A stretch of DNA of 64,000 nucleotides from a phage. The notes under the pieces were generated by a model, which did no database searches, was not told the origin of the DNA, and saw only the letters and a list, made by a program, of their open reading frames with translations. Position numbers and translations under genes: made by a program. The stretch lies in sequence record NC_111505.1; one strand, written 5' to 3'. Below are positions 19,176 to 26,027 of the stretch, one piece after another. The first letter of the stretch is position 1, and every line of letters starts with the position of its first letter.

Positions 19176-19184
19176 ACAACCTCC

Positions 19185-20369
19185 TCAAGCTTTAGCTAAA
19201 ATGGCGCTAAACTCTTCACCAAACTCTTTTACAATCTTCATCAGGTTTGGGTATGCTTTGATCAGCTGAGCAACGATCTTGTCCCGGCCTTTACCAATAA
19301 GTAAGGCATTTCCTAGGGCGTTGGGTTTCATCATCGCCATAAAGACTGAGAATACAAAGTCTCGGTTCTCATCCTTGAAATTTTCCCAAAGGAAATCAAG
19401 GAAGTTTGCCACGCAGCTAACAAGATCTTCGTCTGAGACACTTGCATTTTCCATCATATTCCGAATAGCAATACAACCTTCAGACCCAAGAATCCACAAA
19501 ATATCTGGCTGCTTAGGACCTACATACTCTTTGCAACCCCCTGCCATAATCCGACCGATTTCTGGCAAGTTTCGTTTCTTGGTGTGGTAGGTCCAGATTT
19601 CTACCGCTGCAGTGTGACCAATAGCACCTTGCAGAAGAACACGAGCCATAGCGTCAGAAATAATACCGCTGTCAAAATCGTGCAGGATGTCAGATGCAGC
19701 AACCCAAGATCGCGGTGTAGCAAAAGATGGACAATTAATCTCAGCCATAGCCTCATAATTATCGATAGCTGATGGAACTCTTTTCAGATATCCAATTACA
19801 GAGGAATGCACACCATTAAGGAATGCGTAGTCCTCAATAAATACCTCTGCACTGCTTGTAACTTCTACAATGATAAAGCGGTTAGCCAGAGGGGCTTCGA
19901 GCGCTGAAAGAACAGCACCATCCGTAGCACGGTTACCTGCAGCTACAAAAACAGAGCCCTTAGGAAATGCATAGGTGCCGCACTTGTGGTCGAGCATAAT
20001 TTGCATTGCAACCTTCTGCAGGTAGTTATCTGCATGAGTAAGCTCATCCAGAAAGATAATTCCGCTCCAGTCCGAGTCTGCAGGCCAAAATTCTGGAATT
20101 GCAAACACTGTGCGTGTAGTTCCATCTGCCTCTACAGGGATAGGTAGTCCAGACAAGTCAGCAGGATCTTTATCTGACAGCCGCACGTCAACCAGGTTGT
20201 CATCTCGCTCACCGAACATATTATCAGCAATCTGCTTCATCACCTGGCTCTTCCCCACACCCATCGGTCCTAAAATCAGGACAGATCGGTTATGACGCTG
20301 GGCAAATTGAATAATAGCTGGCAACTCGCGGACAGTGATTTGACCACTTTCGAATACGTTTCTTGACAT
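19185..20369 (-). CDS. MoxR-like AAA+ ATPase (CbbQ/CobS-like)
   Basis: Walker A GPMGVGKSQ; Walker B IIFLDELTHA; 394 aa. Confidence 0.7.
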   Translation of the reverse strand: MSRNVFESGQITVRELPAIIQFAQRHNRSVLILGPMGVGKSQVMKQIADNMFGERDDNLVDVRLSDKDPADLSGLPIPVEADGTTRTVFAIPEFWPADSDWSGIIFLDELTHADNYLQKVAMQIMLDHKCGTYAFPKGSVFVAAGNRATDGAVLSALEAPLANRFIIVEVTSSAEVFIEDYAFLNGVHSSVIGYLKRVPSAIDNYEAMAEINCPSFATPRSWVAASDILHDFDSGIISDAMARVLLQGAIGHTAAVEIWTYHTKKRNLPEIGRIMAGGCKEYVGPKQPDILWILGSEGCIAIRNMMENASVSDEDLVSCVANFLDFLWENFKDENRDFVFSVFMAMMKPNALGNALLIGKGRDKIVAQLIKAYPNLMKIVKEFGEEFSAILAKA

Positions 20370-21690: not shown

Positions 21691-21969
21691 TTAGGCAACT
21701 GTCATTTTACATTCTTGAAATTTTAACACAAGACGGTGATTGTGTCTAGTGTCTAAAAAGATTTTTTCAACCATCAGGCACACGGTATAACCGTCCGTCT
21801 TGTTGACAACAAAATCCCCAGGGTGAGGGAGAATGTCTCTGGGGTTGGGGAAACATAACCCGCTCAAGAAGGCATCATCGGTGGTGGACTTGATGGATTT
21901 CCACACACTATCTGCCTGAACATTCTCACCAACATAATATACACTACCACATACCTTCATCATAGTCAA
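21691..21969 (-). CDS. hypothetical protein
   Basis: 92-aa ORF. Confidence 0.45.
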   Translation of the reverse strand: MTMMKVCGSVYYVGENVQADSVWKSIKSTTDDAFLSGLCFPNPRDILPHPGDFVVNKTDGYTVCLMVEKIFLDTRHNHRLVLKFQECKMTVA

Positions 21970-22865
21970 ATCTCCGCGTAAATTAAACTGGAATCAGTAT
22001 ACTTCTTTAACGGGTAAATATCCTGTCCATAGATGCCGTCATTAAACACCTCATCTACCCAAAGGCTACACTTATATCCCATCATCTCTAAAACACCCAT
22101 CTCTTCTTCGGTAAACTTATCACCGCTCTTGCAAGATGTCAACACCTCATTCTGTACTCTTGCTACCTCGAAGCGGTTATTGGCAATATCACTATTGGCA
22201 ATCAAATACTCACCTAAAGGGTGTGCAGCATTAAAGATGCACAGTGGACGGTTGACGTAATAGTCCCCCGGTGTATAAAAATTGTTGAGATCCTTCACCA
22301 GAACATTCTTATCAGTCACTTCATTTATAACATCATGCATATCACACATCTTTATATGTTTGAGGATTCCATCCCCCATCACAAAATAAAAACTTGCTGA
22401 GACACTCTCGGCATAGATCTTACTAGATCCATTGTAGTTGTATTTTACGCGAATGCTTACAGGGGTTTTGCCTGTCGCGTTAGCCATCATCCAAAGGAAC
22501 GGAAGTTCAAACTTCTCCTCTGAGGAAACAAAAGGTGAAGTTGCCAGAGATCGGAAACCACCAGAGAAGTTGAAAGTTACAGAGCCGCTCCGGCGATATG
22601 ATACCGCATATTCTACTTTTATATCGACATAGCCGTTGGAGTAAGTGTGGCCTCCATTATCCAGATATGTCCACTTATCAGATCCGGATACCAACCTACG
22701 CTCAATCACCTTCATTACTACAGGAATTAGCGGGTTGGTACAAACCGATTTTGAAGTAGCTTTATCATCCAAAGCCTCGTAAATTGCAGAAAGGATATCG
22801 CCTGCTGAGAGATTGGTTGTGATATCTTGTTTCCACCGAGTGCTAAAGCTGTTAAGATTTGCCAT
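21966..22865 (-). CDS. hypothetical protein
   Basis: start at internal ATG (MANLNSF) with AGGAG upstream; first gene of the minus-strand early block. Confidence 0.5.
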   Translation of the reverse strand: MANLNSFSTRWKQDITTNLSAGDILSAIYEALDDKATSKSVCTNPLIPVVMKVIERRLVSGSDKWTYLDNGGHTYSNGYVDIKVEYAVSYRRSGSVTFNFSGGFRSLATSPFVSSEEKFELPFLWMMANATGKTPVSIRVKYNYNGSSKIYAESVSASFYFVMGDGILKHIKMCDMHDVINEVTDKNVLVKDLNNFYTPGDYYVNRPLCIFNAAHPLGEYLIANSDIANNRFEVARVQNEVLTSCKSGDKFTEEEMGVLEMMGYKCSLWVDEVFNDGIYGQDIYPLKKYTDSSLIYAEI

Positions 22866-22905
22866 GATTAAGTGCTCCTGTGTTCGTTTTCTTTCGAATG
22901 GGTGC

Positions 22906-22934
22906 ACTATATCGTGGATTTAGAGTAAAGTCAA
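22906..22934 (-). promoter_or_regulatory. sigma70-like promoter (TTGACT-17-TATAGT)
   Basis: minus-strand -35 and -10 with 17-nt spacer, about 35 nt upstream of ATG 22865, in the divergent intergenic region. Confidence 0.5.
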
Positions 22935-22947
22935 CACGTTTTTGAGG

Positions 22948-22976
22948 TTGACATCTGTTGAGGCACTTGATAAGAT
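22948..22976 (+). promoter_or_regulatory. sigma70-like promoter (TTGACA-17-TAAGAT)
   Basis: perfect -35 hexamer, 17-nt spacer, 4/6 -10; drives the plus-strand island. Confidence 0.5.
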
Positions 22977-23007
22977 TTCTTCACCTACAGAGCACAAGAG
23001 ACAACTC

Positions 23008-23997
23008 ATGAATCTTGAAAAATATTATACACCAGAAGAGTTAGAGCGCCTGCTCAAAAAATACAGACGCAAACAAAATAATGCACGGAAACGAGATATA
23101 GAGTTCAACCTGTCATGGGAAGAATACCTCCTATTTGGTAAAAAACTTTTAGGAGAGGGGGTGTGCGACTATACCCTTATACCTTTCGACATGCACACAG
23201 ATGAAAACGGACTGGGAAATCCTTTCTACCCCTCCCTAGAGCGGATAGATGATGAAGGTCCTTATGCTGTTGATAATTGTTGTGTGGTGGGATTGAGATG
23301 CAACTCTCTAAAGGACTGTCTGGTAGATAAAAAGACCGCAGTCTTGATTAAAGACAAAACTGATCGAAAAATTGTCCAGCAGATGATGCTCCACCTGAGC
23401 GAAGAGCGTATGGAGAAATTGAAAGGTGATTACACTTTTGAAGATTTCATCTTGCAATATGGAACGGAAGAGGATAAACTGGCACTCTTTGACGAAGAAT
23501 GGGAGGAAGATATGTCACCAATGCAGGATTTTAAAAACTTCATGGCTAATCGTGGAGCCAACAAGCACATTTCTGACATCGTAAATGAGCCTGTAACAGA
23601 AGAGATTGAAGAAATGATGCAACAGGATCACGAAGAGGAAAAAGAGCCTCAAAAGGTCGAAGAAGAGCTTACAGAAGAGGTTCCTGCACTGCCTGACGAT
23701 GTTGAGATTGCTAAAGCCTATACTTTCTATTGCCAGACGTTCTACGATGCAGGCATGAAAGTCGATCTGTCATTCAGCCAATTTAAGAGCACGTACATTC
23801 GAAAATGCTGTGCTTTAACTGGCGAGCGTTTCGGGGCCGGACTTAAACCGTTATTAGTGACCGACTGGAATAAAGGTTTCACCAAAGGTAACTTTATGGT
23901 AGTATCTCCGATCATGGAGAAGGCTATGACAGACCTTATGAAGACCACTCGCATGACAATGACCGAGTTGGCTGGTATTTTCAAGCACGTTAAATAA
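23008..23997 (+). CDS. hypothetical protein with internal repeat module and long acidic tract
   Basis: start at ATG 23008 (track start is TTG); two related modules (RKRDIEFNLSWEEY...C.YT and VDLSFSQFKSTYIRKCCALTGERF) flank a D/E-rich stretch; first gene after the promoter. Confidence 0.5.
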   Translation: MNLEKYYTPEELERLLKKYRRKQNNARKRDIEFNLSWEEYLLFGKKLLGEGVCDYTLIPFDMHTDENGLGNPFYPSLERIDDEGPYAVDNCCVVGLRCNSLKDCLVDKKTAVLIKDKTDRKIVQQMMLHLSEERMEKLKGDYTFEDFILQYGTEEDKLALFDEEWEEDMSPMQDFKNFMANRGANKHISDIVNEPVTEEIEEMMQQDHEEEKEPQKVEEELTEEVPALPDDVEIAKAYTFYCQTFYDAGMKVDLSFSQFKSTYIRKCCALTGERFGAGLKPLLVTDWNKGFTKGNFMVVSPIMEKAMTDLMKTTRMTMTELAGIFKHVK

Positions 23998-24001
23998 TGA
24001 C

Positions 24002-24018
24002 AGGGGCCAATGGCCCCT
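24002..24018 (+). promoter_or_regulatory. intergenic hairpin (AGGGGCC-AAT-GGCCCCT)
   Basis: perfect 7-bp inverted repeat right after the stop at 23997; the same stem is reused in the 29.75-kb terminator. Confidence 0.35.
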
Positions 24019-24030
24019 TCTGGAGTTTTA

Positions 24031-25491
24031 ATGGATAGCAGAAGTTCAGAAATCATTGCCGCACAAAAAGATGACGCCTTGCGAATGCTGCAGGCAGCAC
24101 GTATGTATCTTCTTGAAAAACTGCCGTTTTATGGCACACTGTTGTCAGGGTTGCAGTTCGTAGAAAACCACACATGGTGCTCCACCATGGCAACAGATCA
24201 TAAACGCATTTATTACAGTCCTGAGTTCGTTATGGGATTGGCTGATGAGCGCAAAACCATTCTTGAGGCATCTTTAACTGACAAGCAGTTTGAGATGGCT
24301 GAGGTTTTCTATTCCCCCAAATCTGTGAAAGAGGTGGCATTTCTTCTATCACATGAGGTGGGGCATATTATCTGTGATCATCTGGTCCGTGGCAAAAGCT
24401 TTGAGCCGGAACTGTTCAATATTGCCTGTGATCATGTTATCAACACAGGTCTTGTGGTTGACTTTAGCAAGCCCCCTTGTGTTTTCTTCCCGAAGGGGAA
24501 AAGCACTACGTTTGTAAAAGGTAAGCCTTTTGGCTTTTTAGCTAGTTGCTACTGTGACATGAGGTTCCATGGATGGATTGCTGAGAACGTCTATGCTGTT
24601 CTTGATAAGCAAAGAGATCAGAATAGCGGTAAAAGTAAGAACGGTAAAGGCGAGAACTCTCAAGGAGATAAACGACAAACCGATGATCACATGAGTGGTA
24701 ACGGTGGCACTAGTGATGATCTTGGAAAGGCTATGGGGTATGATCAGCCACAGCCAGTGATCAGTCAATCTGATAAAGATCAAGCCATGCAGGACTCTGG
24801 TGACATGTTGGAAGCAGCAATGCAGGCTTCCGGAGGTAGTTGCCCTGAGGCTGTGCGCGAGTTTGTCAAAAACAGAGGTAAGCCTGTAATCAATTATATA
24901 GACATCATTAAGCAACGTATGTTGTCCAAACGAAAGGCTGAACTAACCTACAGAAAACCAGGTCGCCGATCTGGGTCTTTGACCAGCACAATGCGAAAAG
25001 TTGGAGCTATAAACAAGAATCAGCACGTTGTTGTTCCTGGCCGTAATCCGGAAAACACTATAGATATTGTGGTGGCTTTAGACGTTTCTGGGTCGATCTC
25101 GCAAAGAACTTTAAAGAAAATGTTCAATGAGATCACTGGGTTGTGCAATCTGTATAAAGAGTTCAAGGTTACGATGTTCTGTTGGTCAACTGAGGTTGGA
25201 GAGGTTAAAGTATACACTCGCGGGAACATCGACGAGATGATCAACTATGAGGTCCACTCAACATGGGGAACAACAGCCGCTTGCGTGTTCGAGTATCTGG
25301 ACGCTAACATACCAAATGCAAAAGATGTCATCGTCCTGACCGACCTATACTTTGAGCATAACTTTGAACAAAAGGCTGTTGACAACAAGTGGAAAAAGTA
25401 CGATACTTTATGGGTTCTCACCGAAGGGTATAATAAAAATTATATCCCTAGCTTTGGGAAAACTGTAGAATTGATCGAGTACGCTAAATAA
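24031..25491 (+). CDS. VWA-domain protein with N-terminal HExxH metallopeptidase-like domain
   Basis: HEVGHIICDH zinc-binding-like motif; MIDAS-like VVALDVSGSIS; start set at ATG 24031 (GGAG upstream) after the hairpin. Confidence 0.65.
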   Translation: MDSRSSEIIAAQKDDALRMLQAARMYLLEKLPFYGTLLSGLQFVENHTWCSTMATDHKRIYYSPEFVMGLADERKTILEASLTDKQFEMAEVFYSPKSVKEVAFLLSHEVGHIICDHLVRGKSFEPELFNIACDHVINTGLVVDFSKPPCVFFPKGKSTTFVKGKPFGFLASCYCDMRFHGWIAENVYAVLDKQRDQNSGKSKNGKGENSQGDKRQTDDHMSGNGGTSDDLGKAMGYDQPQPVISQSDKDQAMQDSGDMLEAAMQASGGSCPEAVREFVKNRGKPVINYIDIIKQRMLSKRKAELTYRKPGRRSGSLTSTMRKVGAINKNQHVVVPGRNPENTIDIVVALDVSGSISQRTLKKMFNEITGLCNLYKEFKVTMFCWSTEVGEVKVYTRGNIDEMINYEVHSTWGTTAACVFEYLDANIPNAKDVIVLTDLYFEHNFEQKAVDNKWKKYDTLWVLTEGYNKNYIPSFGKTVELIEYAK

Positions 25492-25497
25492 GAGAGG

Positions 25498-25767
25498 ATG
25501 TTATTTATGGCAACAGAAGTAGTAATTAAAGCTGAACGCCCAGTTAAAAAAGCTATCAACACGTTTCCTGTAGGAACTATTGTGAGCATGATTACAGAGT
25601 CAGGTCGTGTATCTACACTGCTAATCGTGAAATCTGCATGCTCATCTTGTGTGTGGGCATATGATCTTGACGAGAAAGAACTGAAAGATTTTGTTGGAGA
25701 GCTGAAAGCAACAGAACTTGACGCTCGTATCGAAGTATTTGGTGAAACTATGGAGGAAGAGCAATGA
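25498..25767 (+). CDS. hypothetical protein
   Basis: 89-aa ORF. Confidence 0.45.
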   Translation: MLFMATEVVIKAERPVKKAINTFPVGTIVSMITESGRVSTLLIVKSACSSCVWAYDLDEKELKDFVGELKATELDARIEVFGETMEEEQ

Positions 25768-26027
25768 CCACAAAAATCACCATTGCAGAACCGAAAGCTA
25801 ACACGCAGCCTATCGAAAAGTTTAAATGCGGTGAGGTGGTAACATTCACACCTGACAATGAAGATGCCAAGATTTTCGCCATGGTTACAGCCGAGTGGAT
25901 GTGTGACAACACCACACAGGTTCTGCGTTTTGACACCTATCTTACAGATGAAATCAGGAACGACAAGATCGTGACTGGTGTAGATACTGAGATTGTTTTC
26001 TACAAGAGCTTCGTGGAGGGTTTCTAA
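25764..26027 (+). CDS. hypothetical protein
   Basis: 87-aa ORF, ATGA overlap with upstream gene. Confidence 0.45.
   Translation: MTTKITIAEPKANTQPIEKFKCGEVVTFTPDNEDAKIFAMVTAEWMCDNTTQVLRFDTYLTDEIRNDKIVTGVDTEIVFYKSFVEGF

Follow-up and report, generated by a model that had tools for sequence, protein, structure and literature searches.

Srd of phage T4 (gene srd, NP_049634; PHROGs 1400 and 4592) is encoded among the host-takeover genes modA, modB, srh and mrh, and is labelled a 'postulated decoy' in the T4 record. According to three sources that report this work (Qi et al. 2015 via PMC4980113, PMC7430671 and PMC13232886), Srd attaches to RNase E at its N-terminal, catalytic half and stimulates the decay of host mRNA. 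It has thus been presented as an activator that binds RNase E and not as a nuclease. Stimulation of RNase E is known for T4 Srd alone.

The restriction endonuclease PacI (PDB 3ldy and 3m7k), placed in His-Me finger group 20 by PMC5714182, forms a homodimer of single-domain, 142-aa subunits, each with two Cys4 zinc sites. It is the known exception among HNH enzymes, in that it has no catalytic His (PMC5714182, PMC4081073, PMC3384342). Instead, a Tyr in the omega loop between the two strands takes over the role of the His as base, with Asp and Asn as the metal ligands. Among His-Me finger domains there are also catalytically dead ones, the SMAD MH1 domain and the nuclease-like domain of ENPP, which persist as binding modules (PMC5714182).

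The window analysed here, the whole 64,000-nucleotide stretch of phage DNA taken from record NC_111505.1, comes from an rV5/FV3-like Vequintavirus. A sequence-only reading had singled out positions 23008-23997 as an internal duplication, with two related modules on either side of an acidic tract, and these positions coincide exactly with one CDS. The 4-kb region around this gene shares 97% identity with Escherichia phages FV3 and EPFV3-03/2025 and 90-95% with about 110 further rV5-like phages (Vequintavirus), and it lies in synteny in 116 of the 118 close (matching) records. The encoded protein matches phrog_3118 over its full length (E 1.2e-112) and, on the homology described below, is a Vequintavirus member of the T4 Srd family. 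The gene and the parts of its product are as follows.

23008-23997, plus strand: CDS of the Vequintavirus Srd-family protein, 329 aa, ATG to TAA; the EPFV3 annotation uses the same ATG
23041-23337, plus strand: N-terminal module (N-module), aa 12-110; T4 Srd by BLASTP at E 1e-7, PHROG Srd and endonuclease families at 1e-7 to 3e-13, pLDDT 86-97
23227-23313, plus strand: catalytic-type core of the N-module, aa 74-102, with E78-R79-x-D81, Y86, N90 and N99-x-x-K102; aligns without gaps to PacI
23338-23499, plus strand: helical extension past the N-module, aa 111-164; AlphaFold2 (AF2) helices at 117-129, 132-138, 144-151 and 154-167
23500-23688, plus strand: mostly disordered, strongly acidic linker, aa 165-227, from pLDDT and charge count; the full D/E-rich tract is aa 143-227
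23698-23952, plus strand: C-terminal module (C-module), aa 231-315, a degenerate second PacI-type copy
23842-23928, plus strand: core of the C-module, aa 279-307; hhalign pairs it with aa 74-102 without gaps

The relationship to Srd lies in the N-module, to which the N-terminal domain of T4 Srd is homologous. BLASTP aligns the two proteins over Srd residues 4-133 (E 1e-7), and the N-module alone matches the two PHROGs of Srd, phrog_1400 at 4.8e-7 and phrog_4592 at 3.8e-9. Structural matches in BFVD are to proteins named 'Srd' and 'anti-sigma factor'. T4 Srd carries the motif E-R-F-D...G-Y...N...N-T-F-R with the same spacing as the N-module, and both genes come from large lytic myoviruses of enterobacteria. 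The overall architecture differs, however. T4 Srd is about 24% identical to the window protein and has one module only; its C-terminal half is an unrelated region, basic and helical, and the acidic linker is absent. No second module was found in T4 Srd with either the N or the C profile, shallow or deep.

Self-alignment of the window protein, the check proposed for the duplication, gives a split result. Taken literally, as a pairwise comparison, it would have failed the duplication: direct Smith-Waterman alignment of the N-terminal 150 residues with residues 231-329 scores 22 (z = -1), a value reached in 1699 of 2000 shuffles (mean 25.4, sd 4.2). The copies in this protein have diverged past pairwise detection. 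Comparison of profiles, by contrast, recovers the repeat. When a 128-sequence N profile is set against a 128-sequence C profile, hhalign returns a probability of 97.7% and E = 2e-12 over 85 columns, placing residues 12-110 onto residues 231-315, whereas a profile-profile comparison built from only 12 homologues is merely suggestive (P = 0.0016).

Several independent routes through relatives lead to the same pairing. T4 Srd residues 30-80 align by BLASTP with both modules, with the N-module at E = 1e-7 and with residues 253-299 at E = 2e-4. In the Srd PHROG profiles, the two modules, when scanned separately, fall on the same positions; on phrog_4592 the N-module match given above covers positions 58-140 and the C-module covers 56-126 (0.018). 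A C-module profile run against 1.84 billion representative proteins yielded 232 relatives, mostly of 230-350 aa and containing both modules. In local searches of these relatives each profile also picks up the other module: that of the C-module finds N-modules, in register (E down to 3.9e-7, set of 173), and that of the N-module finds C-modules (E down to 3.4e-5). The halves are even directly similar in some two-module relatives, with z > 3 in 27 of 128 and z > 5 in 10 of 128, and two proteins, P0070 and P0098, show a direct repeat at z of about 11. Because of this evidence from relatives (Srd BLASTP, PHROG matches, cross-profile searches, direct z scores and hhalign), we conclude from sequence comparison that the internal duplication is real and old, and the proposal of a duplicated domain flanking the acidic tract is thus borne out. 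The conserved Cys and aromatic positions that had also been claimed for the two modules hold up unevenly. The Cys residues do pair (C53 with C268, each 98% conserved in 128 relatives), and the aromatic positions match only in part, at F60/F275 and Y86/F291.

In a separate observation, the C-module profile matches one protein of 3475 aa (P0161) weakly at about 12 regular places, one every 160 residues or so; each match is individually insignificant, and the pattern suggests an extended series of repeats that are related or only look alike.

The fold of the modules is not evident from domain libraries. Pfam and NCBIfam match neither the full-length protein nor its separate modules at permissive cut-offs of E 10 (Pfam) and 1 (NCBIfam), and PDB sequence searches gave no real match, whether they started from the protein sequence itself or from small profiles of the modules. 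With a 33-sequence N-module profile, PacI is the top PDB sequence match, at an E of 0.05 that is marginal taken alone. The cores of the two proteins align without a gap, V-D92-R93-S-D95...G-Y100...N104...N113-R-I-K116 in PacI corresponding to L-E78-R79-I-D81...P-Y86...N90...N99-S-L-K102 in the window protein.

In structure prediction, which had also been suggested as a check, AF2 models both modules confidently and with the same order of secondary structure: a long helix and a short strand, then a helix and a hairpin, and finally two strands and a helix. The full-length model has a pLDDT of 79 overall, with blocks at 81-97 over residues 1-160 and 85-92 over residues 231-320, and the C-module modelled alone reaches 90.4, the models having been built on shallow alignments (12 and 8 sequences). 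The pTM of the full-length model is 0.50, and the mutual placement of the two modules is not fixed by it. The helical extension is modelled at a pLDDT of 81-90 up to about residue 160 and of 51 for residues 161-170, and is partly conserved, at D119, M126, L138 and Y142.

The predicted models show a PacI-like beta-beta-alpha-metal fold. Because the E = 0.05 match agrees with the structural ranking and with the exact spacing of the motif, we regard the assignment of the domain, from sequence and models, to the PacI-type His-Me finger (beta-beta-alpha-metal) nuclease fold as solid. The window protein nevertheless departs from PacI in several respects. It lacks both Cys4 zinc sites and has one conserved Cys per module (C53, C268); it reads C-x-Y-T-G where PacI has C-G-Y-C-G, and there is no C-x-x-C before the Asn. 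It also fuses two copies in one chain, one of them apparently inactivated. The N-module further matches the single-module families phrog_3322 and phrog_1035 (E 1e-10 to 3e-13, about 95 residues), whose names, 'endonuclease' and 'endonuclease VII', are annotation labels and not tested functions. Only the N-module is matched by these families, and the profile of phrog_1035 is longer, at 271 positions, of which the matching domain makes up only a part.

The two copies are unequal, one having the active-site motif and the other lacking it, a difference that the sequence-only reading missed. In the N-module R79 occupies the position of the His, Y86 aligns with the Y100 of PacI, and E78 and N99 align with its metal ligands D92 and N113, such that the sequence contains the PacI-type Tyr-for-His substitution and the pair of an acidic residue and an Asn, as well as the structural Asn and Lys. 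These positions are close to invariant in the N-modules of 128 relatives: an acidic residue at 78 in 100%, R79 in 99%, Y86 in 100%, N90 in 100%, N99 in 97% and K102 in 97%, with His at position 99 in the remaining N-modules. In the C-module, by contrast, the catalytic positions are replaced, by L283, V284, F291, E304 and M307; the Tyr is thus a Phe, and the metal-ligand positions hold L283 and E304. Only D286 and N295 survive at motif-core positions.

This loss extends across the family. Among 128 C-modules, [D/E]-R occurs in none, Tyr at position 291 in seven and Asn or His at position 304 in one, and the positions that do survive, C268, T271, D286 and N295, are structural. Because the catalytic motif is absent from all these C-modules, the C-module is, as read from sequence and models, a fold-preserving, catalytically dead paralogue, and the N-module is active-looking, with a full PacI-style active-site set. 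In keeping the beta-beta-alpha fold without the His, the substitute Tyr or the metal ligands, the C-module resembles the SMAD MH1 and ENPP domains. Unlike these, to which it has no sequence relationship, it shares its chain with an active-looking paralogue.

The acidic stretch reported between the modules is real. Residues 143-227 (85 aa) contain 28 D/E against 6 K/R, for a net charge of -22, and half of residues 201-220 are D/E. Most of the tract is predicted by AF2 to be disordered, with pLDDT below 50 at 165-173 and 182-227. The linker is also the fastest-evolving part of the protein and has many insertions and deletions: its identity to relatives is 83%, 35% and 15%, compared with 97-98%, 75-79% and 68-76% for the modules. 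In 118 two-module relatives it is 9-99 aa long (median 42) and has a median net charge of -2 (range -24 to +6), with 31% of linkers neutral or basic. Because the linkers of relatives have this charge distribution, the strong acidity is, from the sequences compared, a trait of the Vequintavirus lineage and not of the family. The economical reading of the linker is a flexible tether, which may have an extra role specific to this lineage.

The gene opens a plus-strand cluster, the rest of the genome being read on the minus strand, and the sign of the GC skew flips at 23 kb, that is, at this gene. Inside the 100-nt gap upstream of it are two divergent sigma-70-like sites, which are consensus matches only and occur in numbers near the shuffle expectation.

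22948-22976, plus strand: sigma-70-like promoter, TTGACA, 17-nt spacer and TG-n-TAAGAT, 10 of 12 matches with an extended -10 TG in a consensus scan; about 30 nt 5' of the ATG
22934-22906, minus strand: divergent sigma-70-like partner, TTGACT-17-TATAGT, a consensus match

The position of the plus-strand site argues against a longer, TTG-initiated ORF from 22942. In two distant relatives whose proteins are 21% (P0026) and 38% (P0023) identical, the gene is again the first past a divergent junction and has consensus matches of the TTGACA type upstream (in L003 and L004). A tblastn search finds the protein in 242 phage records, of which 209 cover at least 80% of the query, and the two-module architecture is kept in 209 of the 242. 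The carriers are nearly all myoviruses of about 130-150 kb, with hosts in Escherichia, Klebsiella, Salmonella, Cronobacter, Erwinia, Aeromonas and Vibrio. That the gene is so nearly universal and so constant in position in these sequences fits an early core function. GenBank labels for the gene conflict, and include hypothetical protein, anti-sigma factor, HNH endonuclease, anti-termination protein and postulated decoy.

The explanation that we consider, on balance, probable is that the gene encodes an early host-takeover protein of the Srd family, built from a tandem duplication of a PacI-type domain in which one copy looks active and the other dead; its function we infer from these features. 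The gene would be expressed early from a host-type (sigma-70-like) promoter, and its product would act on host nucleic acid turnover early in infection, as T4 Srd does. Transfer of function from T4 Srd is an extrapolation, because Srd has a single module and is only about 24% identical. The N-module would supply a conserved functional site, either for metal-dependent cleavage or for the binding of nucleic acid or a partner. The inactive C-module would be a built-in non-catalytic partner or binding domain; PacI works as a homodimer, and here one chain may take the place of a dimer and have just one active site. The linker would serve mainly as a flexible tether between the copies. As to whether the N-module cleaves or binds, the pattern of conservation somewhat favours real catalysis, and the published description of Srd favours an adaptor.

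The adaptor alternative deserves the most weight among the rivals, and we regard it as possible though not the likelier account. It holds that the N-module residues bind the RNase E catalytic domain or RNA and that both modules are pseudo-nucleases. The only experimental data on the family concern the binding and stimulation of RNase E by T4 Srd (PMC4980113, PMC7430671); the canonical His base and the zinc sites of PacI are missing, and the non-catalytic C-module indicates that the fold can persist without an active site. Yet a full PacI catalytic set is 97-100% conserved at exact spacing in 128 diverse N-modules while the corresponding positions of the C-module have drifted freely. This pattern matches catalytic constraint, and a binding site could also give it. 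A bolder version of our preferred reading goes in the opposite direction: Srd proteins, that of T4 included, would be Tyr-dependent PacI-type endonucleases whose cuts in host RNA or DNA, leaving 5'-phosphate ends, drive RNase E-dependent decay of host mRNA. In the two-module proteins the dead copy would replace the second subunit of a PacI-like dimer, to give a single-chain nickase or single-strand cutter with one active site. We offer this as a speculation that is unlikely to hold.

Three further readings were rejected as the main explanation, on linker disorder and charge variability, on the nuclease folds and on synteny, respectively. The sequence-only reading had suggested that the acidic linker is a DNA mimic, which might block a host DNA-binding protein or imitate region 1.1 of sigma-70. 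The charge of the tract (net -22 over 143-227 and 50% D/E over 201-220) and the historical label of the family, 'decoy of sigma70', would suit such a role. A conserved, structured acidic display is not what we see, though: the tract is mostly predicted to be disordered, conservation is lowest here and insertions and deletions are frequent, the median net charge in the 118 relatives is -2, with 31% neutral or basic, and T4 Srd has no such tract, so that this suggestion is not supported and seems very improbable. Still harder to credit is the label that many GenBank records give, of an anti-sigma factor, a sigma-70 decoy or an anti-termination protein. Such names recur in the annotations of relatives, and PHROGs has 'Srd anti-sigma factor' and 'decoy of host sigma70', but the T4 record itself says 'postulated', annotation of the gene is inconsistent among records, no sigma-factor or anti-sigma domain is matched in Pfam (E up to 10) or NCBIfam (up to 1), and the folded parts are nuclease-type domains. 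The HNH-type fold and the label 'HNH endonuclease' might instead point to a free-standing HNH homing endonuclease, a selfish mobile gene. Homing endonucleases are typically sporadic in their occurrence. This gene, however, sits in the same place in 116 of 118 close relatives, is the first past the divergent junction in distant phages too and keeps its two-module architecture in 209 of 242 phage records, and neither Pfam nor PHROGs reports a typical homing-endonuclease DNA-binding module. We therefore give homing hardly any credence.

The gene family and the fold superfamily are already known, and internal duplications are common and an ordinary evolutionary event. What appears new with respect to databases and searchable literature is the PacI-type identity of Srd, the tandem of an active-looking and a dead copy, and the doubt that these cast on existing annotations; in the searchable literature we found no paper linking Srd to PacI. 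About 240 sequenced large myoviruses of enterobacteria, Vibrio and Aeromonas, among them many phage-therapy candidates, share it as a core and probably early gene, and a description as one active-looking and one dead PacI-type domain would allow consistent annotation in place of five contradictory labels. As T4 Srd shares the intact PacI-type motif, the assignment also provides a testable lead on the mechanism of Srd.

The surroundings of the gene yielded some additional observations. The divergent neighbour (21966-22865, minus strand) is annotated as a 'putative alpha 1-3 fucosyltransferase' in relatives; this name seems unfounded, as Pfam gives it no support (the best match, at E 0.15, is to an unrelated adhesive domain) and phrog_12338 is a family of unknown function. 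Sixteen records labelled 'Campylobacter phage' (MG065644, MG065690 and others; host Campylobacter jejuni) are about 95% identical to positions 22000-26000, and their Srd-like proteins are up to 98.5% identical to that of the window. The Campylobacter jejuni host label of these unannotated records looks doubtful.

Downstream, the next gene (24010-25491, plus strand) has a product in which DUF2201_N, a putative metallopeptidase of the HExxH type ('HEVGH'), is joined to a VWA-like DUF2201 domain, with Pfam matches at 1e-27 and 2.8e-11 (DUF2201_N and DUF2201). The label 'HNH endonuclease' that phrog_1314 gives to the DUF2201 family looks like a mislabel. A MoxR-type ATPase, the usual partner of DUF2201, is annotated in the 97%-identical EPFV3 about 4 kb away on the other strand (19184-20368, minus strand, in the window). 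The distant relative L004 also has the DUF2201 gene, two genes downstream of its Srd-like gene. In the window, the Srd-like stop codon is closely followed by AGGGGCC-AAT-GGCCCCT (24002-24018), a perfect GC-rich hairpin into which the ATG at 24010, the first in the next ORF, falls. EPFV3 uses the ATG at 24031 instead, and a GGAG five bases before it suggests that 24031 is the real start of the next gene. The hairpin may be an attenuator or an RNA-stability element between the two genes.
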